Assembly: GCA_009781445.1 (NCBI GenBank)
Contig: WQYD01000001.1
Coordinates: forward strand, 73,126-137,125
Source of the DNA: Bacillota bacterium
Lineage (GTDB): Bacteria > Bacillota > Clostridia > Christensenellales > DTU072
Direction: 5' to 3'
DNA length: 64,000 nucleotides
How positions within the stretch are numbered: position 1 is the first letter of the stretch; each line of letters opens with the position of its first letter. Shown one piece after another: positions 5,065 through 64,000 of this stretch. The position numbers and the translations under genes are program-made. Below the pieces are notes generated by a model. It was given only the letters and a program-made list of their open reading frames with translations. It was not told where the DNA came from and searched no databases.

Positions 5065-5993
5065 TGATTGGATACATTCATTCGCTTGAAACCATGGGAA
5101 CAGATGACGGCGGTAAAATCCGCACCGTTGTTTTCATGCAAGGGTGCAATTTGAGGTGCGTTTATTGCCATAATCCTGATTCGTGGAATTCAGCGCACAG
5201 CGCAGAATTAATTCAGAATTCAGAATTCAGAATTCAGAATGAAGGAAAGGAATCAGCGCACAGCGCACAGCGCACAGCGCACAATGAAGGAAAGGAATCA
5301 GCGCACAGCGCACAGCGCACAGCGCACAATGAAGGAAATATTAATAATAATTCCGCCCCTGCAACCTGCAACCTGCAACCTGCAACCTCAAAAGATTCCA
5401 CCCCTATGCCCTATGCCCTATGCCCTATGCCCTCAACGGAACTTGCAAAAAAGCTAATCCGCTTTAAACCTTATTTCAAAAACGGCGGGGGGGTTACTTT
5501 TAGTGGCGGTGAACCGTTGCTTCAGGCAGACTTTGTAAGGGAAACGGTGAGAATTTTAAAAGAAAACGGCATTCATGTGGCTTTGGACACGGCTTGTTCC
5601 GTTTTAAACGAAAGCGTCAAAGCCCTTTACGGCGCAGTTGATTTGGTTATTGCGGATTTAAAGTTTTTTAGTAATGAGGATTATATTACGCACGCGCACG
5701 CGGATATTTTTAATACCGTGATAGACACGCTTAATTATCTTAATAAAATAGGCAAGCCTGTAATCCTGCGCACGGTAATCGTTCAGGGCATTAACGATAA
5801 TGAGGAAAGCATTTTAAAATATAAGGAAATAGGGGATCGTTTTAAAAATATTATCCGCCACGAATTTAAACCTTTTCACACAATGGGCTTTTCTAAATAT
5901 AAAGAATTCGGAATCACTAATCCGCTTGAAAATAAAAGCGCGCTAAGTAGCGAAGTTTTGGAAAGGCTTGTTTCCGCGCAAAAAAGCGAATAG
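5064..5993 (+). CDS. pflA: Pyruvate formate-lyase activating enzyme (radical SAM), interrupted in frame by ~82 aa of repeat-element sequence
   Basis: CNLRCVYCHNPDSW (CX3CX2C) and GGGVTFSGGEPLLQ motifs. TAATG stop/start overlap with pflB. About 309 aa versus about 245 aa typical, and the excess maps to 5187-5433. Confidence 0.85.
   Translation: MIGYIHSLETMGTDDGGKIRTVVFMQGCNLRCVYCHNPDSWNSAHSAELIQNSEFRIQNEGKESAHSAQRTAHNEGKESAHSAQRTAHNEGNINNNSAPATCNLQPATSKDSTPMPYALCPMPSTELAKKLIRFKPYFKNGGGVTFSGGEPLLQADFVRETVRILKENGIHVALDTACSVLNESVKALYGAVDLVIADLKFFSNEDYITHAHADIFNTVIDTLNYLNKIGKPVILRTVIVQGINDNEESILKYKEIGDRFKNIIRHEFKPFHTMGFSKYKEFGITNPLENKSALSSEVLERLVSAQKSE
5187..5433. repeat. Intragenic, core-less mosaic of heptamer arrays and junction modules from the dispersed element family
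   Basis: (CAGAATT)x4-5, two copies of (CAGCGCA)x4 each ending in CAATGAAGGAA, AATTCCGCCC-(CTGCAAC)x4, ATTCCACC-(CCTATGC)x4. The same units and junctions occur in the intergenic elements. Confidence 0.9.
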
Positions 5994-8282: not shown

Positions 8283-8398
8283 CGCATAATGCGGGGCGCA
8301 TTATGCGCAATTAAGAATTCAGAATGTAGAATTCAGAATTATGGATTAATTAACTAATGAGATTTAGAATCCACCATGTTTCTCGTTTCTCGTTTCAC
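8283..8398 (-). repeat. Palindromic heptamer-array element, copy A (core in reverse orientation)
   Basis: A 10-bp hairpin (8283-8307), an AATTCTG-type array read as GAATTCAGAAT (8309-8340), the core reverse-complement AATTATGGATTAATTAACTAATGAGATTTAGAATCCACC (8337-8375), then (TTTCTCG)-type array (8379-8398). Confidence 0.85.
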
Positions 8399-9368: not shown

Positions 9369-9373
9369 CTTAA

Positions 9374-9554
9374 CAGCGCACAACGCACAGCGCACAGCGC
9401 ACAATGGTGGATTCTAAATCTCATTATTTAGTTAATTAAACCACAATTCGTACTTTGTACTTTGTACTTCGTACCTAAATAAATAATTCCTTCACTGTGC
9501 GCTGTGCGTTGTGCGCTGTGCGCTGATAAAATTCACAATTCGTACCTCGTACTT
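9374..9554 (+). repeat. Palindromic heptamer-array element, copy B
   Basis: Left arm (CAGCGCA)x4 at 9374-9403, core 9406-9448, (CGTACTT)-type array 9449-9475, junction AATAATTCCTTCA, inverted arm (TGTGCGC)x4 at 9495-9525. Near-identical to copy G. Confidence 0.9.
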
Positions 9555-18633: not shown

Positions 18634-18682
18634 TATATAGTCGCGCGTGTGCGGAAGTTAAAAACGCGCGTGCAAGGTGAGT

Positions 18683-27600: not shown

Positions 27601-30600
27601 GTACAGCACAATATTCTGGGAATATTATGAACCTAATCAGGACGGCACAGGCGGTGAATGGAAGCGGTTACCGGGGCTTTCCACCCGTCCGTCTTACACA
27701 ATCACCGTTTCGGAACTTCTAAAACTTTCGTACTTTAACCGTGCAAACGAAAGCGCGTTTTACGAAGAAGATTTGCCTATGTGGAATTCCGCCAATAGCT
27801 ATATCGGTGCCGGATCTTTCGCAACGCTTAGGCTTCGCGCAAGGTTTAACCGCGTGGAAAGAATAGATGTTGTGCCGTGGTCTGCTTTATCCCAATCAGG
27901 CGTATATATTGAGGGGGCAGACGGGCCTACACCTCAAATAACCGAAAACGGAAGATCGTGGGGCAATTTTGATTTCAATTCCACAATAACCGTGCGCCCT
28001 GTGCCTAACGGATTGAGATTTGACTATTGGACGGTGTTTAACCCAAGCACGCAAACCTATGAAGAAGTTACTTATGACGGGGCTATCACAGGTTCACACT
28101 TTTACCGAATTGATAGGGTAAGCAATGTGCTTACCGTGCGAATGGCGGAATCTTATCTATTTGCCCCGCGCTACACAAGGATTTATAATGCCACAATCAC
28201 GGCGCAAAACCTATCGGCAAACAGCGATAGCATCTTCCACAGAAACTATACCCCCGGAATTCTATTCTTCGGCTTTGGCAAAACAATGGAATTAAGCAAC
28301 TGGAATTTGAATGCGCCCCCTCAGCCCCAAGCGTCTGTTTCGCGCCAAATTGAGGTGGGTGATTGGGTTTGCTTTAAGCTTGATAACCCCCATTCGGAAA
28401 GCACATTCGGTTCAAAGGTTCACGGCACAATCGCAGGCACATACACAAGATTTTTAAGCGTTTACTATCTTAACGAAGCAAACCAAAGGGTAACAATTAA
28501 CCCTCATCCAAGTTATAACCACTCAGATATTTATCAACAAGTTTTTGTGGTGCAGGTTACTCAAAGAATGACTGTGTACTTTGAATTTAAATCGTTCACC
28601 TCTATTGAAATCACAAACCTATATCACGGAGACGGTTCTAACCAAAAATCCGTGCTTTTCTTGCCCGAAAGGTTGCGCACGGCAACGGGGCTTTCGGAAC
28701 AAATAAATGTGAGTGGCACATCTGTCCTTATAGAAAATGTACCTATTGAAAGGGATTCCGCGCCTTCTAACTATTCGGGAACTTTCATAAATAAGCTTAA
28801 CGGAATGTTTACCGGCTTCTCAGGATCTCAAACCATTGAATTCCGCGGAGGTTACGGATTGTTCCTTTCAGAAGTTCCTGCTTTAAGCGCAAGAACTTAC
28901 GGATTCTTTGCTTTCGGCAGTGTGTCGGAAGCAAGCGCAATTTCAAGGCGCGCCTATCCTTTCCAAGATTCACACCTTACTCAAGCAGGTATGGGAACGC
29001 CTCAAAGCCCTTTCAGAATAAGTTCCGTTAGCCATTTAGACAGCATGGAATTTATTTACACAATTAACAACCGCACCTTTTCCACCACGGGCGGTGCAAG
29101 CGGAAGAATGCACTTTATTCTAACGGCAAGCTTTACCTTAAGCCCCAGCGGAGCGTTGTTTCAATCAAGGGGCTTGTTCTGCGATTCTGTGGAGGCAGGG
29201 GGAGATGGGTTTAACGGAGTTTTCATGGGAAATAACCAAACCCTCACTTTGGGCGCAATGAGTGCTAACGCGCTAACTAACGATCGCGGGGTGGGCATAT
29301 TCGCGCGCCTTGGTGCTAACGGGCAAATAAGAGATTTGGTTATTCAGCGTTCGGCAACTAACATTTCGCTTGGCGGGAATAACAATGTGGGGCTACTTGT
29401 GGCAAGAGCGGTCGGCACAAGCGGAAATATCGCTTCAATCAGCAATATCCGCATAGGCGATACCGTGGGTATCATTCAAGGAAACGGTTCAAATGTGGGC
29501 GGGCTTGTGGGCTTCGCTGAGCATTGTACGATTACAGGTGTTCAAGTAACGAATGTAACGGTTAGAAACAGCAGTACCGCAGGCTTTGGAACAGGCGGTA
29601 TCGTAGGCACGCTTTCCACAGGCGCGAGATTGGTAGATTCATTTAAAACTATCTTAAGCACCGCACAAAATGTGGAATCGCAAGGTAGCCATGTGGGTGG
29701 CGCAGTGGGCAGAACAACGGGTACAGCGGGCGAAGCAATGCTAAGAGTTACCGTTAACTATTTCACAAGCAATAACTCAACAGGCGCAAGCATAGGCACT
29801 TTAAGTTCAAGCGTGGTGGGCGGTGTTATTGGGCTTAACGGTGTGGGCAGAACCATATCTCAAGTTTATGCCACAGGTTCGTTCACAATAAATTCACGCG
29901 CAAGCACAGGCATAACAGGTAATAGCGCACCCACTATGACACAAAATGCAGAAGGAAACCTAACTACCGTGTTCGGCGCAGGAGGCATTGCGGGCGAAAA
30001 CAGGGGAACAATAACCTATGCAGGGCTTGGCATAAGCCTTGGCTTCGGACAAACATGGAATACCTCAAACGAAGGCACAAACGGGCTTCACACCGTGAGA
30101 ATCAATTCAAATTATGCAGGCGGTATAGTGGGGGTTAACAGGGCTAACGCAAGGTTGGAATATTCTAACACAGGTAACCACCGCTTCTTCACTAACTTTG
30201 GCGGGCTAACAAGCGTAGGCGGGGCTTACGGCGCGCATGTGGCTATAAACCAAGGCACAGTTATCTACGCGCACACGGTTTCTGCTTATAATAACCAAAT
30301 AATTGAAACCACCGCGGATTCGGGTGCTTATACCACAGGCGCATTGCCGAATGACTATCTTTTCACTTTAGTAAGATCGCTTCCTATGGGCGGAAATAAC
30401 GGCACTTGGTATCCTTTCTATAATGTCGTTCCCAATAGTTCAAACAGAGGAACGCATGTGGCACACACGCAGGAAACAGGCGCAATTTACTTCGGCGGTG
30501 TGGCAGGCTTTAACTCAGGCGGGTTAGTTTCAAACAGTTCAATTAGGGGTAAGCTTCAAATCTCACGCACATCGGGTAGCAACGGCACTAATTACACATT

Positions 30601-35386: not shown

Positions 35387-35533
35387 GGGAAACGAGAAAC
35401 GAGAAACGAGAAACGAGAAACACGGCGGAATCTAAATCTCATTATGAAACGAGAAACGAGAAACGAGAAACATGGTGGAATCTAAATCTCATTGTATATT
35501 AAATCCATAATTCTGAATTCTTAATTCTAAATT
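35387..35533 (+). repeat. Palindromic heptamer-array element, copy D (duplicated left half)
   Basis: (GAAACGA)x5 plus truncated core GGCGGAATCTAAATCTCATTAT (35424-35445), then (GAAACGA)x3-4 plus core 35474-35512 and an AATTCTG-type array. Starts 1 nt after the potC stop. Confidence 0.9.
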
Positions 35534-41178: not shown

Positions 41179-41670
41179 ATGATATTAAAAATTAAAAGAG
41201 ATTTACACAGTTTAAAAGAAGAGGCTTTTCCTGTGCAGAATGCAGAGGGGGATATTGTTGCCGTTCTTGTGCCTGTTACGCAAGGGTATTATATAACCAA
41301 CCGCGTGGGGGAACAAATAGCGCAAATAACCTTTTACGATAAAAACGCAAAACTTTGCATAGCTAACACCACAGGGAAGGACATAACTACCACAAGCATT
41401 GCAAGCCTTGGAAATAATAGATTCGGATTTAAGGATTCAGTTTCCGAACAGGATAAATCCTTTGCCTTAGATATCCCCAAAAGGTTTTTAGACGAACTTT
41501 CTTTTTGGGGTGATCCCTTAGTACCGTCTTATGACATTTATTCGGATAAAACCGTTTCCGCTTCCGTAACGGCAAGCGAAGGCGACACAATATCAATAAA
41601 AATCGCCCGCGATGCTAACTTTTTAAGAATGTTAATGATTGTGTTGGCAGTTGATTATTTTAGGGCATAG
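41179..41670 (+). CDS. Small protein, possibly tubby C-terminal-like (LURP-one/YxjI-type)
   Basis: 163 aa with an alternating beta-strand pattern and a hydrophobic C-terminal helix (FLRMLMIVLAVDYF). The assignment is weak. The stop codon TAG lies inside a GGGCATA array. Confidence 0.35.
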   Translation: MILKIKRDLHSLKEEAFPVQNAEGDIVAVLVPVTQGYYITNRVGEQIAQITFYDKNAKLCIANTTGKDITTTSIASLGNNRFGFKDSVSEQDKSFALDIPKRFLDELSFWGDPLVPSYDIYSDKTVSASVTASEGDTISIKIARDANFLRMLMIVLAVDYFRA

Positions 41671-41862
41671 GGCATAGGCCATAGGGCATAGGTAAAAATA
41701 AAAACACCTCTCTGTGTCTGAGGGGTGTTTTTGTTAGAAGAGAGTTAAAAATTAAGAATAAAAGGTGAAAAGTTATGGAATCTAAAATCTTACTCAAGAA
41801 AAATGCATAACAAAATAATTCCACCCCTATGCCCTATGCCCTATGCCCTATGCCCTATGGCC
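41662..41862 (+). repeat. Palindromic heptamer-array element, copy E (degenerate core, embedded terminator-like hairpin)
   Basis: Left arm (GGGCATA)x4 at 41662-41692, hairpin at about 41704-41729 plus T-run, degenerate core TATGGAATCTAAAATCT (41774-41790), AATTCCACCC plus (CTATGCC)x5 to 41862. Confidence 0.85.
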
Positions 41863-42417
41863 TCAATTAAGCGTGCGCATAAGCAAATCAATATCTTTAT
41901 TCGCAATATAATCAATCAGCGCGTCCGCAAGTTTTGTTAGCACGGGCGCGTAGTTTTCCATGTCGTCTTTTGGTATCGGGCTTAGCACGAAATCTTTTTT
42001 GGGTGAGGCGGAATCGCCCATTCCTATGCGTATTCGTTTAATACTTTCCGTGCCAAGGACGGAAACCACGCTTTTCATGCCGTTGTGCGTGCCACCGCTT
42101 CCAAATGCCCTTGCACGCAGTGTAAAGCGGGGAATCTCAAAATCGTCATAAAGTACGAAAATATCGTCTGGGGTTGCGCCGTACTTGGCGCATAGGCTTT
42201 TAACCGCATTTCCCGATAAATTCATAAAGGTTGTGGGCTTTGCAATCACAATTTTTTCACCGTTTCGCTGAAGCACAGTAACAAGTGATTGGCAATCGTA
42301 CTTCTTAATCTCTTTATTTAGCTTTTTTGCAAGCAAATCCACGGCAAGAAAGCCAAGGTTATGAAAGGTGTTTTCGTATAATTTTCCGGGGTTACCAAGC
42401 CCCACTATTAGTACCAT
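41863..42417 (-). CDS. pth: Peptidyl-tRNA hydrolase
   Basis: LIVGLGNPG..Y..T.HN.GF and GTHNGMKS motifs. Confidence 0.95.
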   Translation of the reverse strand: MVLIVGLGNPGKLYENTFHNLGFLAVDLLAKKLNKEIKKYDCQSLVTVLQRNGEKIVIAKPTTFMNLSGNAVKSLCAKYGATPDDIFVLYDDFEIPRFTLRARAFGSGGTHNGMKSVVSVLGTESIKRIRIGMGDSASPKKDFVLSPIPKDDMENYAPVLTKLADALIDYIANKDIDLLMRTLN

Positions 42418-42911: not shown

Positions 42912-42926
42912 AGCTATTTACAATTA

Positions 42927-42974
42927 TCGTTTCACTTTTATCGTTTCATGTTTATCGTTTCATGTTTCTCGTTT
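42927..42974 (-). repeat. Degenerate GAAACGA-type heptamer array (copy F) overlapping the 3' end of the peptidase gene
   Basis: TCGTTTCACTTTTATCGTTTCATGTTTATCGTTTCATGTTTCTCGTTT. It encodes the last ~10 residues (NEKHETINMKR) and the stop of the CDS. Confidence 0.7.
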
Positions 42975-43789
42975 AACAGGTTGCAAAGCAAATCCCAAGA
43001 ACCTTTATGCGCGTTATATATCGGTTCAAGTTCGCTTTCTTCTATAGGGTGGGGCAGTAAATCACTGCCCACTTCCACGGTTAGCCCCAAGCGGTTAGTT
43101 TCCTGCACAAAGTAGTCCTTTAATCCGCCTGCCGAATTCGGCGTTTCTTTGGGGGTATAACCCAAGTAATTTGCAAAGGTTTTTGCCTTATTTTCGTGCT
43201 TTTCATGGCTTCTAAAGCCGTAATAAACCTCTTCGCCTTTGCTGTGGTAAGCTACAACCGCGTCATAATTTCCGTGGCGCATAAGCCTCACAACGGCGCG
43301 CGTTTCAGGTTCGGACTCAGGGCATTTCCCCACGAATCCGCTTGGCGCAGGGTAAGCAAGATTTCCCTCACCCTCGCCCCAACCTGCGTTAAAATTAAGG
43401 TTAATATCCACCGCATTTATATTCGCTTTCCAAAGCGAAAAGTTACTGCTTTTGTTAATTTCTCTAAGGAAATTTTTGCGTTTTTCACAGATAGGAACGC
43501 CGTTTAAGCCGTTTCTACTAAGCATAACCCCGTCTATATTAAGCATAGGCACAAGGTGCAACGATAGGCTACCACCGTACTTATTATAATCCTTAAACAG
43601 CTTTAAAGCAAGCGGTGCGGTAATAAATTCACGCGCGTGAACCGCCCCCACAATCAGCACCCTTCGCGCGCACGGTGCGGGGGCATACGAAAGCATTGGG
43701 ATAGGGAAGTTAAGAACGGTTTTGCCGATAATTTTCGGCACGGAAATAGAGTGAAGGCTTTTAATGAAATCGCGGTAAATGAAGGGCAT
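42938..43789 (-). CDS. M14-family zinc carboxypeptidase (gamma-D-glutamyl-meso-DAP peptidase-like)
   Basis: VGAVHAREFIT (HxxE), AVVAYHSKGE and LTVEVG motifs. I prefer ATG 43789 (MPFIYRDF). The longer ORF to 43849 reads through the CAGCGCA array (MCAVRCAL). Confidence 0.7.
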   Translation of the reverse strand: MPFIYRDFIKSLHSISVPKIIGKTVLNFPIPMLSYAPAPCARRVLIVGAVHAREFITAPLALKLFKDYNKYGGSLSLHLVPMLNIDGVMLSRNGLNGVPICEKRKNFLREINKSSNFSLWKANINAVDINLNFNAGWGEGEGNLAYPAPSGFVGKCPESEPETRAVVRLMRHGNYDAVVAYHSKGEEVYYGFRSHEKHENKAKTFANYLGYTPKETPNSAGGLKDYFVQETNRLGLTVEVGSDLLPHPIEESELEPIYNAHKGSWDLLCNLLNEKHETINMKR

Positions 43790-43825
43790 TAAATAGTATA
43801 TGCGGGAAAAACATGAAGTGTTTTT

Positions 43826-43968
43826 CAGCGCACAGCGCACAGCGCACAATGGTGGATTCTAAATATCATTATTAGTTATTTAATCCATAATTCGTACTTT
43901 GTACTTTGTACTTCGTACTTAATAAATAATTCCTTCATTGTGCGCTGTGCGTTGTGCGCTGTGCGCTG
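43826..43968 (+). repeat. Palindromic heptamer-array element, copy G
   Basis: (CAGCGCA)x3 at 43826-43848, core 43851-43892, (CGTACTT)-type array, AATAATTCCTTCAT, then (TGTGCGC)x4 to 43968. Near-identical to copy B. Confidence 0.9.
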
Positions 43969-43972
43969 AAAA

Positions 43973-45046
<1,074 letters not shown>

Positions 45047-45251: not shown

Positions 45252-45382
45252 TTATAGTATCTTTACTAATACATATTGGCGCGATATCATTTAGCCTCAC
45301 ATATGCGCGCGTCATTATGTTTTTGGGCGGGATACCACATAAGTTCGCAGTGCGCCATGCACGGCGGGGGGAGATTTATATT

Positions 45383-48300
45383 ATGAAGAAAAGCGTTTCA
45401 TTTTCAAAAGTAGCAAAGGTTTTGGTTTTTGCACTTCTTGCTTTAATGATACTTGGTTTATGTTTGGCACAAGCCTTCAGCCCAGCAGGCGCAATGACGG
45501 CAAACGCCTCAACACCCGATGCCGTGTTCCGCTTGCAAGCAGACAGCACATTTACCCTTGGTTCAGGGGATTTTGTTCTTGAAGTTTGGATTGATAACAC
45601 CAGCCCCATAGGGTTCAGCATATTTCAGCTTGCCTTAAACTTTGACACTACAGTACTTACTCATGTAAGTACGGTAATGAACACCACTCTCTGCTGGTGT
45701 ACCAACCCAGATACCTGCGAGGAACTTGAGCATTCCGATCTCTATAAGCCCGCTATAGCCGGAGCTAATCAGGGGGAAGGGGATAACCCCGAAGACGGAT
45801 ATCTCTTGTTCGGTATGACTGGCCTAGGTTCTTCCAGCAGGATGGATATTCTCGCAGGCGGCGGCTCGGTTATGATTGCCACCATAACATTCACGGTTAA
45901 TCCAAGTGTAACCCACGGTTCGCAGGTTACAATTTGGGCAGGGACAACAGAACACATACCCGACAATAACTTTATAGAGCGTGCGCCCACAACGAGGTAT
46001 GAGCCAATGAGCCACACACACTTCAGTAACAAAGAAGGTCACGAAGTTGCCCCGCTTACCGTAACTTTTGAAGACGGTTCACCTGCGCTTGATAATCTTG
46101 CAGGCAGTGTAAGCATTTCGGGTACTACCGCATTCGGTGCAACCTTAACAGCAATAACAACCGCACTTGTATCCGATCCCGCAGGCACAACGCCCGAAGG
46201 CTTTACTTATCAATGGAATAGAGGCGCAAACCCCATTACGGGCGCAACGCAATCCACATATGTTCCCACACTTCAAGATATAGGTCAACAATTAACCGTT
46301 TCTGTTCAGGCGTCTAACCTCACGGGAACAGTTACTTCCGCCCCAACCACCGTTGTTACAAAGGCTGAACCTATTATTAGTTGGCCCACAAATCTAACTG
46401 CGAACTTCGGGCAAATGCTTTCAAATGTTTCCTTACCCGGTAACGGCACAAGTTCTATTTTAGGAAGCTTTTCGTGGGTACTAACCCCCGGCACCACAAG
46501 CGTGGGCAATGCAGGTTCACCCACATTTGAATTGAGGTTTACGCCCGATGCAACATTTTTGGCAACTTACGAAACAATCACAGAATTTGTAACCGTTACC
46601 GTTAACAAAATCAACGGCACAGGCACACCCACAGCAAACCTTGCAGGTTGGACACTTCCTGCCACAGGCGGTTCGCCTTCAGTTTCGGTTCAACGCTCAC
46701 CCGAACAAACTTCTGCAACCGCAATTTTTGAATATCAACTTAACGGCGCAGGTGCTTGGGTAAGCGTGCAACCTTCAACCGCAGGCACTCACAGCGTTAG
46801 GGCAAGGTGGGAAGAATCCACAAATTATCTTGCACACGAAACCGCAGTTGCCTCTTTCACAATTTTAGCACAGCCCGCTATCAGCGGTGTTCCCACAATT
46901 TCGGGAACGCATACTTTCCTTCAGACTTTAACAGCAAACACAACTGCGCTTGTATCAAGCCCCGCAGGCACACCACTCGGCACGCTTTCATATCAATGGC
47001 TTCGTGGCGGTGTTGAAATAGACGGCGCAATATCTTCCACATATGTTATTAATAACGCGCAGGACGCGGGCGCGATAATTAATGTAAGGGTAACCGCGTC
47101 AAACCTTACAGGCAGTGTTACTTCTGCAAACGCAACCGCGGTTGCAAAAGCTACCCCTACGCCCGCATGGCCTTCAGGCTTAACGGCAACTTTCGGGCAA
47201 ACTCTTGCTAATGTAAATTTACCTACAGTTGCAGGCGGAACTTTTAGCTGGACAAGTGGCACAGGTACTTCTGTGGGCGCGGTAGGCGCGCAAAGCCACA
47301 ATGTAACCTTTACCCCTGAGAACACAACCACACATGAAATTGTTTCTCAAAATGTTACCGTGACGGTTTCCGCTATAAGCATAGCAAACGCGGTTCTTGA
47401 TATTGATGCCCCCGTTGGCGGTGAAACCCCGTCCACGGTTGTTACTGCAACGCCTATTACGCCCGTGGGCTTTACTATCGGCACTGTTGTATGGACGCCT
47501 ACGCACGGCACTTTTATCGGCGGTACTGCTTACACGGTAACCATAACGCTTACGGCAGAACCTAATTACATTTTCCCCGCAGGCTTCTCAGCCACAATTT
47601 CGGGTTCTTCAGCCACAGTTAGCGGCGCACCTGGCGCAAGCGTAACCGTATCTCGCACATTTGCACCCACAGGCGCGCCCGAACTTAGCGGAACAGTTAC
47701 CATAAGCGGTAACGAAGTTTTCGGTCAAACTTTAACCGCAAACACAAGCGCACTCGTTTCTGATCCCGAAGGCACGGCACTCGGCACACTTACATATCAA
47801 TGGCTAAGAAACGGCTCGCTTATCGGCGGCGCAAACAATGCAACATATGTTCTCGGTGCTTTAGATGTGGGGCAAGCCATATCCGTAAGAGTTTATTCGG
47901 CTAATTGTGACGGCGAGGTTACTTCAGCCCCCACAGGCGCAATTGATAAGGCTGCGGGCGCGGTTGTGATTCTTCCTGCCGTTACCATACGCACTGCAAC
48001 ACGAATAGCATTCGCTTCTCTGCCAATTGCCCCCACAGGGCAAACCGTTGAAGTTGGGTATAACTTAACAAACACACCCCCTGCGTCAAATAGTTCAGTT
48101 TGGCAAGCAAACCGTGACTTTCAAACAGGGTTAGATCCAAACACAACTTATTACTTCTTTATCCGTTCGGCTGAAAGCGCAACCCACCATGAGTATGTAT
48201 CAAGCGGGGTAGCAGAAGCCACGGCAAAAGCAACGCTTACAGGCGTACCCACAATAACAGGAACGCCTACTTTTGGTAACACTTTAACCGCAGGCGCAGG

Positions 48301-51300
48301 CACGCTTGCCTCTACCCCCGTTATTCCCGAATTAGGCGCGCTTTCATATGAATGGCTAAGAGGCGACACCGTTATTGCAGGCGCAAACAGCGCAACATAC
48401 ACCCTTGTTGCCGAAGATGTGGGGCAACAAATAAGAGTTAGAATTTCTACCGCAAATTGTGACGGTTCAGTGGCTTCTTTACCCACCACGGCGGTAGCAA
48501 GAACCACAGGCGCAACGCTTACCGCCCCTTCTATAGATTCACACACCGCAAGCACAGTTACATTGATTGCGCACGCAAGCCTTGCCACAGGGCAGGATTT
48601 AATGTATGCCGTTAGCACTTCGTCCACGGCACCCGCCGCAAACGCAACAGGGCTGAACGCATGGCAATCCTCGCTTTCGTTCACAGGCTTAAACGCAAAC
48701 ACAAATTATTACTTCTTTGTTAGCGCGCTTCAATCTGATACTCACGCGCGTTCCGTATCAACAGGTACACTTCAAAGAACAGGCAGGGCAACGCTTGCAG
48801 GCGAAGTTGTGATAACAGGCAACACATACTTTGGGCAAATCCTTACCGCTAATGTGGACGGGCTTGAATCAGATCCGATCGGCGCAACATTTGGCGCATT
48901 TACATATGTTTGGAAGCGTGGCGAAACCACAGTAGGTGGCAATAGCCCCAACTACACACTTGTGCAGGCGGATATCGGGCAAACGCTAACCGTTACGGTA
49001 ACTTCTGCAAATTGTGACGGCTTTGTGGTGTCCTCACCCACCGCTGAGATTGCAAAAGCACCGCAAAATGCGCCTAACGCCCCTCAGCTACTTATGTCCT
49101 CAGACACCTCTATTACCCTTGTGGCTATAAGCGGTGCAGAGTACAGCATTGATAACGGTGCAAATTGGCAATCGTCTGCAATTTTCGCAGGTTTAACCGC
49201 AGGTGAAACTTATACCTTTGTGGCGCGTTTGGCAGAAACCGATACGCACCTTGCAAGCCCTAACAGTAGTTCAAGTGCAGATATTGTTGCACAGGTTCAT
49301 AAAACCGAATCTTCAGGCAAAGGCGAATTTAGAATTGTTCCAACTAAGCCCGTTCACAAGCTTGGCTCTGGCAACCTTGTAATTGAAATTTGGATTGAAA
49401 ACAATTCAAGCCCATTTGTGCCTGTAACCCAATATCAAATCCCTCTTATTTTTGACGCTACCGTTCTAACCCATGTAAGCACCGTAATGGTAGACCACGG
49501 CGGTAGCGGCGACTATATGCCAAGTATTTTAGGCAACGACCCTGCGAACGGTATGCTTGTTTTCGGAAGGACAGCAGGCGGTTCAGAAGCTACAGGAATA
49601 TCTGCCCCCTCATTCCTCATTGCCACTATCACTTTCACCGTGAATTCAGGTGTAAATGACGGCGATTTAACCGTGATTTTCTCGGATTCGTATGTGGCTT
49701 TTGCCAACGCGTTTGTTGGACATAATTTCACGGGGTATTTCCACCACCATTCAAATTTAGGCGACACAATCGCACCTGCCTCAATATCTTTCGTAGATGT
49801 GCTTTGCCCTGATTGTAATGACGAAGATTGCTGTGATTGCGATAGCGGAAACTGCGAAGAATGCGTATGCAGAGATTGCGACACCTGCCAAACACATGAT
49901 TCCTGCGCTTGCGTGGCTTGCGTGTGCGGTGCTTGCGCAACCTGCAATGACGCTTGCGCTCACGCTTGCAAATTATGTGCAGACGAGGATTGTTGCGTAT
50001 GCGATACCGTTAACTGCGCAATATGCCCCTGTGACGATTGCACCGTTTGCCAAACACATGATTCCTGCCTATGCGTGGCTTGCGTATGCGGTGCGTGTGC
50101 AATCTGCAATGACGCTTGCGCCCATATCTGCAAATTCTGTGCAGACGAGGATTGCTGTGATTGCGATAGCGGAAACTGCGTAATCTGCGTATGTGACGAT
50201 TGCACCGTTTGCCAAACACATGATTCATGCCTATGCGTAGCTTGCGTGTGCGGTGCGTGCGCAACTTGTAATGACGCTTGCGGACACACCTGCAAATTAT
50301 GTGCAGACGCGCTTTGTTGCGTATGCGATACTATAAACTGCAAAGAATGCGTATGTGATGATTGTACCGTTTGCCAAACACATGATTCATGCGCTTGCGT
50401 GGCTTGCGTGTGCGGTGCTTGTGCAACCTGCAACGATGCTTGCACTCATACCTGCAAATTCTGTGCAGACGCGCTTTGTTGCGTATGCGATGATGAAAAT
50501 TGCGATTTCTGCGCTTGCGGTGATTGCTTAACGCACGATCCTTGCGATTGTGATTGCAACGAATGCGGTGACGAAAAGTGCTGTGAATGTGATAGCGGAA
50601 ATTGTGATCTTTGCGAAAATGATATTTGTTGCCTAACGCATGACGGATTCTGCGCTTGCGAGGGTTGCCCGAATTGCAGTAACCCTGAATTGTGCGAAGT
50701 TTGTGACGAATGCGGAAATACCGAATGCGAATGCGTTTGTTGCGCCGAATGCGGAAAAGAAGTTTGCATTTGCTGTGCGTGCCGTGTAGATTTTGACGGA
50801 AGAGATTGCAAATTTACGGAAACCGCCTGCAAAGAACGCACCTGCTTCGGCTGTGAATGCAACGAAATCCTAATTGCAAAAGACACAGGAAACATATTTG
50901 AATTTATATATTTCCATGAAGGGGACATTACTGGCGAGTTTGAAAACATTTGCTACTGTTGTGACGAGTTGTATTTCGGAGCAGATTTGTACGAGATAAT
51001 TGATAGGAGCAAATATGTTTATGATCAAAACAGAGAGGTGTTCCTTATCAATGTTGCAGGCTATGAGGAAATAATTTTCATACTAAAACAGTTCACAAAC
51101 TATTTAGAGAACCCAGATCGTATCAGACTGCTAGATAGGCAAAAAAATGTGATTGATGCTTCCGAATACGACAGCAGATTTATTGGCACAGGCATGACGA
51201 TTCAGCTTCTTGATAGAGATGACGACACAATCGTTATAGACGAAGTAATCGTTGTTATCAAGGGCGATGTAAACGGCGATGGAGTTTTGAATATTTCCGA

Positions 51301-51694
51301 TGGTGCGGCGATAGTTTCACACATGAGTGTTGCAAATATTTTATCGGGGGCTTTTAGAATTTCAGCCGATGTTAATAGCGATGGCGTAATAAATATCGCC
51401 GATAGAGCGGCCGTCATATCGCACATGAGCCTCGCAAGAGATTTGTTCGCAGGTATGAGAGTCGCCGATGACGAAACAAGCGAACCCGAACCCGATGAAC
51501 CCGATGAGCCGTTGCCTGTTGCACCTATAACAGATGCTGAAAACTTGGCAGTAGGCACCTATGAAGAAGCAAGCGCAAGCGGAAAGGCTAATGCAATCAA
51601 TTCAAAAATGCTTGCAAATATCCTTATGCTAACAAGTTTAATGGGCTTGTGCGTTTATCAAAGCAAACACAGAAAAAGAGAACAAAACAAATAA
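45383..51694 (+). CDS. Giant (~2,103 aa) surface protein: signal peptide, two cohesin-like modules, Ig/FN3-like repeats, Cys-rich tandem-repeat region, dockerin, C-terminal TM anchor
   Basis: Signal peptide MKKSVSFSKVAKVLVFALLALMILGLCLAQA. Cohesin-like segments at about 45521-46075 and 49321-49800 (GSGDFVLEVWIDN...FQLALNFDTTVLTHVS...IATITFTVN). A ~95-aa repeat reads ISGxxxFGxTLTA...TYQWLRxG..IxGA...TY. FN3-like NTxYYFFVRA repeats. Dockerin GDVNGDGVLNISD...ADVNSDGVINIAD (51263-51430). TM plus KHRKREQNK at the C-terminus. ATG 45383 follows GGGGGGAG. Confidence 0.75.
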   Translation: MKKSVSFSKVAKVLVFALLALMILGLCLAQAFSPAGAMTANASTPDAVFRLQADSTFTLGSGDFVLEVWIDNTSPIGFSIFQLALNFDTTVLTHVSTVMNTTLCWCTNPDTCEELEHSDLYKPAIAGANQGEGDNPEDGYLLFGMTGLGSSSRMDILAGGGSVMIATITFTVNPSVTHGSQVTIWAGTTEHIPDNNFIERAPTTRYEPMSHTHFSNKEGHEVAPLTVTFEDGSPALDNLAGSVSISGTTAFGATLTAITTALVSDPAGTTPEGFTYQWNRGANPITGATQSTYVPTLQDIGQQLTVSVQASNLTGTVTSAPTTVVTKAEPIISWPTNLTANFGQMLSNVSLPGNGTSSILGSFSWVLTPGTTSVGNAGSPTFELRFTPDATFLATYETITEFVTVTVNKINGTGTPTANLAGWTLPATGGSPSVSVQRSPEQTSATAIFEYQLNGAGAWVSVQPSTAGTHSVRARWEESTNYLAHETAVASFTILAQPAISGVPTISGTHTFLQTLTANTTALVSSPAGTPLGTLSYQWLRGGVEIDGAISSTYVINNAQDAGAIINVRVTASNLTGSVTSANATAVAKATPTPAWPSGLTATFGQTLANVNLPTVAGGTFSWTSGTGTSVGAVGAQSHNVTFTPENTTTHEIVSQNVTVTVSAISIANAVLDIDAPVGGETPSTVVTATPITPVGFTIGTVVWTPTHGTFIGGTAYTVTITLTAEPNYIFPAGFSATISGSSATVSGAPGASVTVSRTFAPTGAPELSGTVTISGNEVFGQTLTANTSALVSDPEGTALGTLTYQWLRNGSLIGGANNATYVLGALDVGQAISVRVYSANCDGEVTSAPTGAIDKAAGAVVILPAVTIRTATRIAFASLPIAPTGQTVEVGYNLTNTPPASNSSVWQANRDFQTGLDPNTTYYFFIRSAESATHHEYVSSGVAEATAKATLTGVPTITGTPTFGNTLTAGAGTLASTPVIPELGALSYEWLRGDTVIAGANSATYTLVAEDVGQQIRVRISTANCDGSVASLPTTAVARTTGATLTAPSIDSHTASTVTLIAHASLATGQDLMYAVSTSSTAPAANATGLNAWQSSLSFTGLNANTNYYFFVSALQSDTHARSVSTGTLQRTGRATLAGEVVITGNTYFGQILTANVDGLESDPIGATFGAFTYVWKRGETTVGGNSPNYTLVQADIGQTLTVTVTSANCDGFVVSSPTAEIAKAPQNAPNAPQLLMSSDTSITLVAISGAEYSIDNGANWQSSAIFAGLTAGETYTFVARLAETDTHLASPNSSSSADIVAQVHKTESSGKGEFRIVPTKPVHKLGSGNLVIEIWIENNSSPFVPVTQYQIPLIFDATVLTHVSTVMVDHGGSGDYMPSILGNDPANGMLVFGRTAGGSEATGISAPSFLIATITFTVNSGVNDGDLTVIFSDSYVAFANAFVGHNFTGYFHHHSNLGDTIAPASISFVDVLCPDCNDEDCCDCDSGNCEECVCRDCDTCQTHDSCACVACVCGACATCNDACAHACKLCADEDCCVCDTVNCAICPCDDCTVCQTHDSCLCVACVCGACAICNDACAHICKFCADEDCCDCDSGNCVICVCDDCTVCQTHDSCLCVACVCGACATCNDACGHTCKLCADALCCVCDTINCKECVCDDCTVCQTHDSCACVACVCGACATCNDACTHTCKFCADALCCVCDDENCDFCACGDCLTHDPCDCDCNECGDEKCCECDSGNCDLCENDICCLTHDGFCACEGCPNCSNPELCEVCDECGNTECECVCCAECGKEVCICCACRVDFDGRDCKFTETACKERTCFGCECNEILIAKDTGNIFEFIYFHEGDITGEFENICYCCDELYFGADLYEIIDRSKYVYDQNREVFLINVAGYEEIIFILKQFTNYLENPDRIRLLDRQKNVIDASEYDSRFIGTGMTIQLLDRDDDTIVIDEVIVVIKGDVNGDGVLNISDGAAIVSHMSVANILSGAFRISADVNSDGVINIADRAAVISHMSLARDLFAGMRVADDETSEPEPDEPDEPLPVAPITDAENLAVGTYEEASASGKANAINSKMLANILMLTSLMGLCVYQSKHRKREQNK
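49805..50530 (+). repeat. Tandem 162-bp (54-aa) coding repeats, 4 full units plus a diverging 5th, encoding the Cys-rich module
   Basis: Units start at 49805, 49967, 50129, 50291 and 50453, each opening with TGC and the last four with TGCAAATT[AC]TGTGCAGAC. All are in frame. Consensus: CKxCADEDCCxCDxxNCxxCxCDDCTVCQTHDSCxCVACVCGACAxCNDACxHx. Confidence 0.9.
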
Positions 51695-59199: not shown

Positions 59200-59207
59200 G
59201 TTAAATT

Positions 59208-59238
59208 AAAAAAGCCACCTGAAAGGGTGGCTTTTTTA
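59208..59238 (+). terminator. Rho-independent terminator of the surface-protein operon
   Basis: A-run, AGCCACC (59212-59218) pairing with GGTGGCT (59226-59232), then TTTTTT. Confidence 0.8.
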
Positions 59239-59239
59239 A

Positions 59240-59424
59240 AGGGCATAGGGCATAGGGGTGGAATCTAAATCTCATTATTAATAGTGAAACGAGAAACATG
59301 AAACGAGAAACATGGTGGAATCTAAATCTCATTATTAATTAATCCACAATTCTGCATTCTGAATTCTTAATTCTGAATTAAAAAATTCCACCCCTATGCC
59401 CTAAACCCTATGCCCTATGCCCTC
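59240..59424 (+). repeat. Palindromic heptamer-array element, copy H (composite with two cores)
   Basis: (GGGCATA)x2, truncated core 59257-59283, GAAACGA-type array, full core 59314-59351, AATTCTG-type array, AAAAAATTCCACCC, then (CTATGCC)-type inverted arm to 59424. Confidence 0.9.
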
Positions 59425-59454
59425 AAAAAAGCACCGCTTTCGCGGTGCTTTTTT
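59425..59454 (-). terminator. Hairpin terminator for yaaT, bidirectional in form
   Basis: AAAAAA, GCACCGC (59431-59437), TTTC, GCGGTGC (59442-59448), TTTTTT. Confidence 0.8.
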
Positions 59455-61796: not shown

Positions 61797-63065
61797 TTAT
61801 TTTACCACAAAAATCTTATTAAAACAAAGCCCGAATAAATTATCTTTATTTTCATGAATAAAATCCGCCGTTTCCTTGGTGATAATATCACCGCCGAAGA
61901 TAAAAGGCACCCCTGGGGGATATAATCCGATTTCATTTATCGCCACGCGCCCGATTGAATCACTAATATCCTTAGCCTCAAATTCCGCACGGCAAGCGCT
62001 TAAATCAAGGCGTTTTACCTCTTCGGATAAACTTCCAAAATCCTTAATTATTCCTTCATTCTGAATTCTGAATTCTGAATTCTGAATTGGTTTTGAATTC
62101 TTAATTATTTTAAACACTTTTCCTAAGTGTTTAAAATTAAACGGCGTAACTATAAACACGATTAAATCTCTATAAACCGCCTCGGCGAAAATTCCTTTTT
62201 CCTCAAGATATTTGGCGGTTTCTTTTGCGTTTTTACATTTTATCACAAGGCGGGAAAAGTCGTCTGTTTTTAAAATTTCAAAATCTTTTAAGCCCTCTAA
62301 GTTTTTACCAAACTTATCAAGCGCGGTTTTAATCTTTAAATAATACTTTTCGCCGTTTTTATAAAAATCCTCTGAGGCGCGTTCTAAAGATAGCATAACA
62401 GGATATTGGGGGCTTGTGGAATGGATTTCATTCAGCGCGTTATGCACGGCAGGCGCGAACTTATCTTTAAAGTGAAGCATTGCACCGCCTGTAAGCACGG
62501 GAAGTGTCTTGTGGGCGGAATGCACCGCAATATCAGCGTAGCTTACGGCAGAATCAGGCAAAAGGCTTGAAAAAGCAAAATGCGCCCCGTGGGATTCGTC
62601 CACAATAACCGTAAGGCTTCCCCTTAATAAAAAATCGGCAGATTCGGAAAATGCAAGATTTCCGAAGTAATCGGGCGAAGTCAAGAATAACACGGTTGCC
62701 CCTGTTTCTTCCAAAGCCTTATTGATATTATCTAAATCTTTTACATAAAAAGCCTTAATCCCGTAAAGCCTTACCGCAGAAAACGCAGATTTGTGGCAAT
62801 TTCCTGCAATAAGCACGGTTTTATCCCTTACCGTATAAAGGGCAATATGAACCGCCGTTGTGCCACCGCCCGTAATGTAAACCGAATTCTCTGCGCCGTA
62901 AATTTCACTAATCCGCTTTTCACTTTTCAAAATCACACCTTGCGGATTCAAAAGATTATCCGAAAAGATAAGTTCAGTAATATCCTCATTATTAAGAACC
63001 CCGCTGTGGGCGGGGGTGTGGAATGAAATGTGGTTTTTGTGTTTTTTAATAGATTTTGAAAGCAT
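61797..63065 (-). CDS. Orn/Lys/Arg decarboxylase-family PLP enzyme (YaaO-like), with an in-frame heptamer-array insertion
   Basis: FHTPAHSG, the PLP-lysine motif SAHKTLPVLTGGAM, and a position upstream of tmk matching B. subtilis yaaO. I prefer ATG 63065. The ORF extension to 63122 is element-derived. Confidence 0.75.
   Translation of the reverse strand: MLSKSIKKHKNHISFHTPAHSGVLNNEDITELIFSDNLLNPQGVILKSEKRISEIYGAENSVYITGGGTTAVHIALYTVRDKTVLIAGNCHKSAFSAVRLYGIKAFYVKDLDNINKALEETGATVLFLTSPDYFGNLAFSESADFLLRGSLTVIVDESHGAHFAFSSLLPDSAVSYADIAVHSAHKTLPVLTGGAMLHFKDKFAPAVHNALNEIHSTSPQYPVMLSLERASEDFYKNGEKYYLKIKTALDKFGKNLEGLKDFEILKTDDFSRLVIKCKNAKETAKYLEEKGIFAEAVYRDLIVFIVTPFNFKHLGKVFKIIKNSKPIQNSEFRIQNEGIIKDFGSLSEEVKRLDLSACRAEFEAKDISDSIGRVAINEIGLYPPGVPFIFGGDIITKETADFIHENKDNLFGLCFNKIFVVK
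62046..62106. repeat. Intragenic heptamer array (CAGAATT)x4 plus ATGAAGGAA junction, read on the coding (minus) strand
   Basis: Plus strand: AATTATTCCTTCATT(CTGAATT)x4GGTTTTGAATTCTTAATT. It encodes ...PIQNSEFRIQNEGII..., the same peptide as in pflA. Confidence 0.9.
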
Positions 63066-63073
63066 ATTGATTA

Positions 63074-63177
63074 GGGTGCAGGTTGCAGGTTGCAGGATAC
63101 AGGGTTGGATTCTAAATATCATTATTAGTTAATTAATCCATAATTCTGAATTCTGAATTCTGAATTCTGAATTAATC
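63074..63177 (+). repeat. Palindromic heptamer-array element, copy J
   Basis: (GGTTGCA)x3 at 63074-63096, core GGTTGGATTCTAAATATCATTATTAGTTAATTAATCCATAATT at 63103-63145, then (CTGAATT)x4 to 63177. It fills the whole lysS-decarboxylase intergenic gap. Confidence 0.9.
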
Positions 63178-64000
63178 CTAATCCCTTGTCCCTTGCCCCT
63201 TTTCTGGTTTCATAGTTGGGAAAAGCAGAACATCTCTAATTGAAGCGGAATCGGTTAAAAGCATAACCATTCTGTCTATCCCTATTCCCAAGCCACCTGC
63301 GGGGGGCATACCATATTCAAGGGCGGTAACATAATCTTCGTCCATCATTTGCGCTTCGTCATCGCCTGCCTCGCGTGCTTTGGCTTGCTTTTCAAAGCGT
63401 TCGCGTTGATCGGCAGGATCATTCAGTTCGCTGAAAGCGTTGCCCATTTCGCGCCCGTAAATAAAAAATTCAAACCTTTCCGTAAGCCTCTTATCACTGT
63501 TTTTCTTTTTGGCAAGAGGGGAAACTTCCACAGGATAATCAATAACAAAGGTGGGTTCAATCAAATGCTGTTCCACTTTAACCTCAAAAAGTTTGTAAAG
63601 TGCTTCGCCCCATGTGGTTTTTTTATTGAGTTCCACACCTGCGTTTTTTGCACCTTCGTGGATTTTATCCATGTTCTTTGTTTTCATGAAATCCACGCCT
63701 GTGTGCTGTTTTACAAGTGAAGCCATAGAAACCCTTTTCCATTTGCCCGATAAATCAATTTCAGTGCCTTGGTAGTTAATCTTTCTTGTGCCAAGCACGG
63801 TGTCCAAGCAGTATTTAAACAGTTCTTCGGTTATATCCATCATGTCGTTATAATCTGCGTACGCTTCGTATAATTCCATGGCTGTGAATTCGGGATTGTG
63901 CTTAATACTCATGCCCTCGTTTCTAAAAAGCCTGCCCATTTCGTAAACCTTTAAAAAACCGCCCACAAGCAAGCGTTTTAAGTAAAGTTCAGGCGCGATT
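63178..64000 (-). CDS. lysS: Lysyl-tRNA synthetase (class II), 5'-truncated by the window edge
   Basis: The frame stays open to position 64000 (...[29 protein letters not shown]). Motif 3 is [14 protein letters not shown]. The 'M' at 63972 in the ORF track is an internal Leu (TTG). Confidence 0.9.

Follow-up and report, generated by a model that had tools for sequence, protein, structure and literature searches.

A heptamer-repeat module lying in frame within a yaaO-like decarboxylase gene of a termite-gut Bacillota bacterium, probably a tolerated copy of a dispersed selfish element

Short tandem arrays of heptanucleotides that recur at dispersed sites have been described in several bacterial lineages. 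Here we analyse such an array, built of AATTCAG units and lying in frame within a gene for a YaaO-like decarboxylase, in a 64,000-nucleotide (nt) stretch (the window) of contig WQYD01000001.1 of an uncultured Bacillota bacterium from a termite-gut metagenome. The closest published match is found in Geobacter metallireducens, where the elements Gmet_H401-449 consist of four GGGACCG units and the class-3 sites Gmet_I301-308, eight in number, are inverted pairs with MTYCTGA units in runs of about five (Aklujkar et al. 2009, PMC2700814). In the supplementary alignments of that study the ATTCTGA units are preceded by TTTCTCC or ATTCC, and the GGGACCG arrays are followed by GGAAA or GTGGAATC. The Geobacter elements also occur within genes and are absent from G. 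sulfurreducens; their authors read them as sites for a regulator or for the nucleoid proteins IHF/HU, or as RNAs, and not as selfish DNA (PMC2700814).

Direct repeats of TAACTGA have been described in marine Beggiatoaceae, cyanobacteria and Bacteroidetes (MacGregor 2015, PMC4679880). Their intragenic copies are found in the stop-free orientation only and mostly at protein peripheries, and a role in translation has been proposed for copies upstream of start codons (PMC4679880). For the GGGNATC repeats of Xanthomonas and Nostoc, the preference for four units has been attributed to the formation of a G-quadruplex (Rehm et al. 2015, PMC4692102). The fusion of small repeats into genes in frame has been reviewed as well (Delihas 2011, PMC3184786). 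In the literature searched we found no subsequent account of how heptamer arrays come about.

The module in the yaaO-like gene and its counterpart in pflA

The minus strand at 62051-62088 reads (AATTCAG)x4.4 followed by AATGAAGGAA, and Tandem Repeats Finder assigns to 62058-62088 a period of 7, 4.4 copies and 100% matches. From 62109 to 62040 the minus strand reads AATAATTAAGAATTCAAAACC-(AATTCAG)x4-AATGAAGGAATAATTAAG, or, split more finely, AATAATTAAG AATTCAAAACC (AATTCAG)x4 AATGAAGGAAT AATTAAG. The segment truly lies within the gene and is not an artefact of assembly. A MEGAHIT k141 contig deposited in ENA spans the array and is identical to the window over all 12,845 + 11,330 compared bases, and from each unique flank Logan contigs assembled at k=31 extend into the array by 18-23 nt. 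The supporting assemblies all come from the same termite-gut metagenome samples; they back the assembly and not constancy of the array at the level of the population.

The host gene lies in the order lysS, yaaO-like, tmk, holB, PSP1/yaaT, which is Bacillus-like; in B. subtilis, yaaO adjoins tmk. The protein matches Pfam OKR_DC_1 (E 3.7e-27) and OKR_DC_1_C as well as the structure PDB 2x3l (E 4e-30). A search among 5.8 billion proteins returned 1135 homologues, the best of which is 47% identical and is encoded on a syntenic contig (greA, lysS, yaaO-like, tmk, holB, PSP1). The mechanical open reading frame (ORF) at 61797-63122 on the minus strand bears the peptide ...KNSKPIQNSEFRIQNEGIIKDF.... 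This ORF and the ENA call of 441 aa take in 19 additional codons (MIFRIQPCILQPATCTLIN; 63066-63122, minus strand) that come from stop-free array sequence. The N-termini of homologues align to the second Met of the ORF, giving a protein of 422 aa; on this alignment, the 441-aa call is an annotation artefact of the repeats.

The preliminary description of this locus had suggested aligning orthologues around the array, on the understanding that a conserved ancestral segment would speak against an insertion. When 120 family members (the yaaO-like protein and 119 homologues) were aligned, no 5-mer of NSEFRIQ was present in any of the 119 homologues. The spacing between the invariant N310 and the near-invariant G372 is 61 residues here against a median of 50 (46-54 in most homologues), an excess of 11, and it is as long as here in only 3 of 74 homologues. 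Since the peptide is absent from the homologues and the linker exceeds the family median, the comparison indicates that the module is an insertion in the yaaO-like gene and not an ancestral segment of the family. The lysine motif that holds pyridoxal phosphate (PLP; H185-K186) and the C-terminal YPPGVP motif are both conserved, in frame on either side of the insert. The repeat-encoded peptide occupies residues 327-338 of 422, directly after a helix at 311-323. In an AlphaFold2 model with a mean pLDDT (the per-residue confidence) of 86 and a pTM (the global one) of 0.87, pLDDT falls below 50 in one stretch only, residues 328-345, and this overlaps the peptide. The insert is therefore predicted to sit in a disordered linker, variable within the family, between the major and the C-terminal domains.

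The boundaries of the insert are uncertain: lengths of 39, 45 or 57 nt are possible, each a multiple of 3. Upstream of the array, the minus strand at 62089-62109 holds degenerate AATTAAG and AATTCAA units, and AATTAAG is a frequent variant in degenerate intergenic copies. The 10-nt sequence AATAATTAAG is present as a direct repeat, with one copy within 62089-62109 and the other at 62040-62049; it bounds the 57-nt version of the insert, yet it resembles the linker of the element itself. An unrelated metagenome contig, L004, has in common with the window, at L004 2172-2211 and window 62080-62098, an (ATTCTGA)n array together with the distal flank ATTGGTTTT (L004 2196-2211), and the outer end of the module may include AAAACC. 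The copy in the yaaO-like gene is a half-module, in which a box (see below) is present, the inverted partner is absent and there are no terminal inverted repeats. On its own it gives no significant fold (z = -1.5).

As had been proposed at the outset, the same module is present in a second host gene of the window, pflA, which encodes a radical S-adenosylmethionine (SAM) activase of pyruvate formate-lyase (ORF 5064-5993, plus strand) and lies directly 3' of pflB. The longest exact stretch common to the two sites, AATTCAGAATTCAGAATTCAGAATTCAGAATGAAGGAA, is 38 nt (62088 to 62051 on the minus strand, 5210-5247 on the plus strand) and includes 7 junction bases that are not part of the repeat. With up to one mismatch, the 14-mer CAGAATTCAGAATT occurs 13 times in the window against 0.04 expected, and none of 100 shuffles reached 13. 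The peptides were also as first described, ...KNSKPIQNSEFRIQNEGIIKDF... in the yaaO-like ORF and ...ELIQNSEFRIQNEGKES... in the pflA ORF, with ...IQNSEFRIQNEG... common to both. The module itself had been given as (CAGAATT)x4 plus junction, and only the number of units needs amending: in the CAGAATT register, three full units are followed by CAGAATG, the fourth unit and the junction having the ATG in common.

In pflA the module is part of a much larger insertion (Table 1), in which one AATTCAG module and after it two CAGCGCA modules run forward, and a CCTGCAA and a CCCTATG module run in reverse. Residues 3-47 of E. coli PflA (PDB 3c8f) correspond to query residues 2-46, and residues 54-232 to query residues 126-302; the E. 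coli protein thus has about 6 residues at the site of the ~79-aa insert. The pflA insert contains a perfect 45-nt (15-codon) tandem duplication, NEGKESAHSAQRTAH x2.

Both intragenic arrays stand in the orientation that lacks stop codons, which had been put forward as an argument for selection on translatability. The underlying arithmetic is sound: AATTCAG translates as NSEFRIQ, with no stop, and CTGAATT as LNSEF*I. However, 7 and 3 are coprime, and in whichever frame an array of 21 nt or more is read, its seven codons are the same; in reverse it will hence always run into TGA, and forward it always yields one and the same peptide. Only the open, AATTCAG orientation is thus compatible with an intact gene, and both the orientation and the peptide common to the two genes are forced. 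The common NEG junction requires the same choice among two open frames, a coincidence of about 1 in 2, and among the 16,384 possible heptamers 69% are free of stops in a given orientation. Selection on translatability thus stands as a survivorship filter; with two cases it does not carry an argument that goes beyond purifying selection. The same stop-codon argument has already been published for the TAACTGA repeats (PMC4679880). The depletion of the family inside genes, which is 54-fold per kb, is better evidence for such survivorship than the orientation.

A dispersed family of arrays and boxes

The survey of the repeat family took in the window plus another 9.5 kb of the contig (73 kb in all). 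The window holds 20 exact arrays of period 7 and none of periods 5, 8, 10 or 11; about 30 arrays are counted once degenerate ones and the additional 9.5 kb are taken in. They are built from at least nine different heptamers (AATTCAG, CAGCGCA, CCTGCAA, CCCTATG, GAAACGA, GTACTTT, TCCCTTG, CCTGTTG and TCGTAAG). The median copy number is 4.3, with 18 of the 30 arrays at 4.2-4.8 and a maximum of 5.6, and the typical length is about 31 nt. Collapse of k-mers during assembly was considered as a cause of this uniform length and rejected, as mutated arrays are equally long and the k=141 assembly agrees.

Every heptamer type in the window shows a fixed polarity toward a purine-rich box with the core GGAWT. 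The full box, ATGGTGGAATCTAAATCTCATTAT (24 nt), occurs 7 times against 0 expected, and a short form, AATGAAGGAA(T/A), is found 3' of both AATTCAG and CAGCGCA arrays. The junction AATGAAGGAAT of the yaaO-like copy likewise stands 3' of the CAGCGCA arrays at 5283, 5328, 9486 (minus strand) and 43929 (minus strand). A small hairpin (GGTGGAAT...ATTCCACC) links modules head-to-head, and the resulting composites are here designated E2 to E10 (Table 1). Composites E3 and E7 are 93% identical over ~150 nt, both carry a diagnostic GCGTT variant unit, and with their 31-nt terminal inverted repeats of heptamers they have the size and termini of a miniature inverted-repeat transposable element, or MITE. 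For E3, folding yields a long hairpin (dG -45.1 kcal/mol, z = -9.6). No target-site duplication is evident at E3 or E7. Composites E2, E4, E8 and E10 have in common a unit of array, box plus linker and (AATTCTG)n, in which the left array is swappable. The likeness of E3 to E7 and the unit common to the other four indicate that whole units are copied, as opposed to arising separately at each locus.

Of the intergenic DNA in the window, about 25% belongs to the family. Several copies begin 0-4 nt from stop codons or provide the stop; E4, for instance, begins 2 nt and E3 4 nt past a stop codon. The elements lie in either orientation relative to neighbouring genes, and E8 is placed between two convergent terminator hairpins (59206-59239 and 59425-59454, the second read from the sequence). 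Both observations favour an element that acts at the level of DNA over a signal in mRNA. Scanning the whole window against Rfam at the gathering score, and E8 at E <= 1, gave only weak terminator-like noise, and inspection of the box by eye gave no convincing match to the IHF consensus.

The module is also found outside this contig. In the source metagenome, two test stretches of 0.8-1.6 kb hit 294-473 contigs, and hundreds of contig ends carry arrays. The depth summed over arrays is 2,000-31,000, compared with ~9x for the genome, and many of the contigs concerned have 7-9x, like the genome. The module (AATTCAG)n-AATGA[A/T]GGAAT occurs in two unrelated contigs, L003 (57% GC, Gram-negative) and L004 (37% GC), with the layout array, box, spacer, box, array that is seen in the window. 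On L003 it stands at 780-960, downstream of exbB/exbD, as (CAGAATT)n-ATGAAGGAAT, which is AT-rich within a GC-rich contig, together with an inverted TGTCTAC/TGACTTC array that has TTTCCCTCCTCC before it; the architecture matches both the window and Geobacter. The suggestion that an array is copied as a unit with its junction is borne out by the fixed polarity of array to box, the recurrence in two unrelated contigs and the 93% identity of E3 and E7; these sequence comparisons give good support to a joint movement of array and junction. At the locus of the 47%-identical relative (L001), one weak heptamer array is present in 10 kb, which points to a lineage-specific expansion of the family. Against one genome per GTDB species, the exact module gave 0 matches, which suggests that the source genome and its near relatives are not among the GTDB representatives; the 21-nt core of the box gave one isolated match, in Flavobacterium, that we take as chance. 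Among the viral contigs of IMG/VR, box and module each gave 0 matches, and there is no sign of a phage vector.

These features place the family in the four-unit heptanucleotide class (STRR/LSSR; Gmet_H4/I3). The unit is 7 nt, there are 4-5 copies, and the copies are dispersed, mainly intergenic and near gene ends, with a GGAA(A/T)-type box and inverted pairs. Like the Geobacter elements, the arrays of 4-5 heptamers are ~31 nt long, number dozens of dispersed copies and are lineage-specific. In both cases boxes adjoin the arrays (GGAAA, GTGGAATC, ATTCC or TTTCTCC in Geobacter, where the inverted pairs are ~100 nt apart), and the Geobacter class-3 unit ATTCTGA is the very heptamer found in the yaaO-like gene. 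Unlike Geobacter, the present organism belongs to another phylum and GC range, and its family has more heptamer types per box, is far denser and has a longer, 24-nt box with a linker. The sequence in common is confined to the short ATTCTGA unit and the core of the box, and may reflect either homology or convergence.

The TAACTGA repeats resemble the family in forming sets of 2-6 heptamers, mostly intergenic and beside gene ends, with a unit that also ends in CTGA; in contrast to it, they are of a single heptamer type, with no box or composite hairpin described. The cyanobacterial STRR heptamers and the GGGNATC repeats are also among the closest known systems. In Nostoc, small dispersed repeats (SDRs) of 21-27 nt are reportedly mobile, nested and sometimes embedded in tandem heptamers (Elhai et al. 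2008). In this they resemble the 24-nt box between arrays in the window. A G-quadruplex as the cause of the four-unit preference was rejected here, as AATTCAG, GAAACGA and GTACTTT cannot form one; the same preference in heptamers of this kind speaks against G-quadruplexes as the general cause of the four-unit rule.

The insert in the yaaO-like gene recalls in another way the Rickettsia palindromic elements (RPEs), which are selfish, non-autonomous, hairpin-forming repeats that sit in frame inside conserved genes. RPE insertions are reportedly tolerated in surface or loop regions (Ogata et al. 2000). The present insert is in frame, stop-free, within a conserved gene, absent from orthologues and predicted by the structural model to lie in a loop. 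RPEs, however, are palindromic, 105-146 nt long, lack tandem heptamers and are confined to Rickettsia, whereas the copy described here is a heptamer half-module of 39-57 nt. The resemblance is functional only and implies no membership of a common sequence family. The module in the yaaO-like gene belongs to a known class of heptamer elements that is mechanistically unexplained.

Origin of the intragenic copy

The explanation that we consider probable is that the module in the yaaO-like gene is a tolerated copy of a non-autonomous selfish repeat in a disordered linker. It would be a solo copy of a dispersed module in which ~4.4 heptamers (~31 nt) carry a purine-rich GGAWT box at one end, and this module would have been massively amplified in an uncultured, Clostridia-like bacterium of the termite gut. 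Modules with different heptamers and a common box would have combined into head-to-head, hairpin-forming, MITE-like composites that are copied whole. One copy would have landed in the variable linker of the decarboxylase, adding ~11-13 residues and, to judge from the structural model, leaving the enzyme intact. It would have survived because its length is a multiple of three, the AATTCAG orientation is free of stops and the frame is open across the junction. Arrival was presumably by copy-and-paste, whether by transposition in trans, by template switching or by ectopic conversion at box-like microhomology. As the host sequence at both intragenic boundaries is box-like (TCGTGGAAT in pflA, AATAATTAAG in the yaaO-like gene), template switching and ectopic conversion are as plausible as transposition. 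The array is perfect, and the insertion may for that reason be recent. We infer that the copy is neutral or slightly deleterious rather than useful, and nothing suggests a function for it.

Several points weigh against this explanation. The databases searched hold neither an empty-site allele nor a close relative (the best homologue is the 47%-identical one), so that the insertion itself, where precisely it ends and whether a target was duplicated are matters of inference and not of observation. No transposase or other candidate enzyme is encoded in the 73 kb examined, and a search for RNA sequencing runs that hold the locus returned none. The uniform 31-nt length and the architecture that recurs across phyla hint at a constraint or function that pure selfishness does not explain, and the neutrality of the copy is an assumption.

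In an alternative that we judge unlikely, the module is a functional cis element that acts within the gene, either bound by a nucleoid or regulatory protein or serving as an RNA element, or else the 13-residue peptide was kept because it improves the linker. A length of ~31.5 bp, corresponding to three helical turns, is conserved together with the polarity from array to box, the same architecture is present in the 57%-GC Gram-negative contig and in the 37%-GC contig, and the Geobacter elements were interpreted as sites of global regulators or of IHF/HU, or as regulatory RNAs. A cis-acting role fits poorly, however, with the occurrence of copies in both orientations relative to the flanking genes, with a copy between convergent terminators and hence outside any transcript, and with the 54-fold depletion inside genes. 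No Rfam family matches, and the peptide is predicted to be disordered in the AlphaFold2 model.

Quite unlikely, in our view, is a contingency locus, in which gain or loss of one 7-nt unit would shift the frame and switch off both the decarboxylase and pflA, in the manner of E. coli K1 NeuO. Adding or removing a single unit does disrupt the frame, since 7 is not divisible by 3; the array itself is perfect, and phase variation by heptanucleotides is documented in coding regions (PMC13001214, PMC8262952). NeuO/HMW1A-type loci are similar in that heptamer tandem repeats affect frame or expression, but there the arrays are long, polymorphic and in surface or virulence genes, whereas here they are short, fixed, in housekeeping genes and part of a dispersed family. 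The yaaO-like array has only 4.4 units, not well over five, and it does not stand near the 5' end of a surface, virulence or modification gene; both hosts are housekeeping genes, and the array is in the middle or 3' part. Lengths in the family are fixed at 4.2-4.8 units even where units are mutated, which argues against active slippage. No length variant was found in the contigs of two runs, although these are consensus contigs that hide minor variants.

Far less credible is a local origin, by replication slippage of an AATTCAG-like sequence in place, with a merely convergent resemblance to pflA. The degenerate AATTAAG/AATTCAA units just upstream, at 62089-62109, could be taken for its traces, but the 38-nt identity extends over the 7 junction bases, the same junction stands 3' of other heptamers, the array length is the norm of the family and homologues have nothing similar at the position, all of which brings this reading close to refutation. 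The weakest proposal, that a repeat common to hundreds of loci was wrongly threaded into the gene, draws on the array 31-mers common to hundreds of contigs and on the breaking of k=31 contigs there, and can be set aside, as both flanks come from the same gene and in frame, contigs enter the array from each of them and the k=141 assembly spans it identically. An intein or intron was also considered and rejected.

Neighbouring features and wider significance

Table 1. Coordinates of the yaaO-like gene, its insert and the related elements of the window
Feature	Position	Strand	Basis or remark
yaaO-like PLP-dependent Orn/Lys/Arg-decarboxylase-family protein, 422 aa from ATG at 63065	61797..63065	-	Pfam, homologues, PDB
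Heptamer array (AATTCAG)x4.4, perfect, in sole stop-free orientation, encoding IQNSEFRIQN	62058..62088	-	Tandem Repeats Finder, codon analysis
Junction with short GGAAT box, AATGAAGGAATAATTAAG	62040..62057	-	First 7 bases (to 62051) finish the 38-nt identity with pflA
Minimal insert, 39 nt (13 codons)	62050-62088	-	Size agrees with +11 residues relative to homologue median
Possible older or outer part of insert, AATAATTAAG-AATTCAAAACC	62089..62109	-	Read from sequence
Sister copy of module in pflA, 38 nt identical	5210..5247	+	Sequence comparison
Composite in-frame insertion in pflA, ~250 nt (~79 aa), directly after CX3CX2C cluster motif	5187..5436	+	
Composite E10: (TGCAGGT)n, 24-nt box + linker, (AATTCTG)x4.6, (TCCCTTG)n	63073..63201	+	Between yaaO-like start and lysS stop
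Composite E8: outer inverted AGGGCAT/CCCTATG arrays, inner GAAACGA and AATTCTG arrays	59240..59423	+	Intergenic
Composite E4: (GAAACGA)x4.7, box, (GAAACGA)x3.7, box + linker, degenerate (AATTCTG)x3.6	35389..35533	+	Intergenic
Composite E2: GAAACGA-box-AATTCTG unit, opposite orientation	8309..8396	-	Intergenic
Composite E3: MITE-like, 31-nt terminal inverted repeats of (CAGCGCA)x4.4	9373..9525	+	
Composite E7: sister of E3	43826..43968	+	Between two minus-strand genes
Inverted arrays of TAGGGCA and CCCTATG on either side of an intergenic region	41661..41863	+	

Arrays meet the ends of genes at several of these sites. Next to the yaaO-like gene, a (CAAGGGA)x2.9 array (63178-63201, minus strand) encodes the end of LysS, ...EKGQGTRD*, including the stop codon; here a repeat element has replaced or extended the native C-terminus. 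The TAGGGCA array at 41661-41692 provides the TAG stop of the ORF at 41179-41670, and its partner, (CCCTATG)x5.6 at 41825-41863, ends ~3 nt from the stop of pth (peptidyl-tRNA hydrolase; 41863-42417, minus strand). A degenerate array of GAAACGA/GAAACAT type and period 7/14 (42924-42975) overlaps the 3' end and stop of an M14 carboxypeptidase gene (42938-43849, minus strand).

About 4.3 kb to the left of the window (L005 15650-15830), the 23-nt box AATAATGAGATTTAGATTCCACC alternates with three heptamer arrays, CCTGTTG x3.4, TCGTAAG x3.6 and CCCTATG x4.6. A CRISPR array was considered at this site and rejected: the 25-32-nt "spacers" are low-complexity heptamer arrays, there are three units, and there are no cas genes. 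Matches to the Rfam family CRISPR-DR53 (E 0.2 and 0.8) fell far below its gathering score of 45 bits and lay on terminator hairpins. No tRNAs were found in the window. Repeats of other kinds are present as well. The ORF at 45317-51694 encodes a dockerin-bearing protein of 2125 aa and contains, at 49820-50491 on the plus strand, a cysteine-rich tandem repeat (162 nt x4, or 324 nt x2, with 82-84% matches). A perfect (TAC)x11.3 at 44164-44197 lies in the ORF at 43973-45046 (minus strand; 357 aa, no Pfam match) and would encode a homopolymeric run. The ORF at 18677-31078 encodes 4133 aa.

For annotation, the consequence is immediate. Stop-free arrays inflate ORFs, as in the yaaO-like gene (441 aa called against 422 aa), add low-complexity peptides to enzymes and provide stops or C-terminal tails to neighbouring genes. 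Pipelines applied to metagenome-assembled genomes from the termite gut and similar sources should recognise heptamer arrays. The yaaO-like copy offers a clean example of what is probably selfish repeat DNA tolerated, in a linker predicted to be disordered, in housekeeping genes of an uncultured Bacillota lineage.

Beyond this one copy, it is the family that has the wider value, in that the unit length, the polarity of the box and the ATTCTGA unit recur across distant phyla. It is possible, though doubtful, that the array-box module represents a cross-phylum superfamily of tiny mobile elements made or moved by one widespread, putative enzyme. If so, the fixed length of 4.4 units would reflect its mechanism, either the length of a templated synthesis or a protein footprint of three helical turns, and not a G-quadruplex; the in-frame copies in essential enzymes would then be by-products, of which the 79-aa block near the radical-SAM motif of pflA would be the extreme case. 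The recurrence of the four-unit preference in heptamers incapable of forming a G-quadruplex undercuts the only published explanation of the "four units" rule, and it turns the origin of bacterial heptamer repeats into a testable question.

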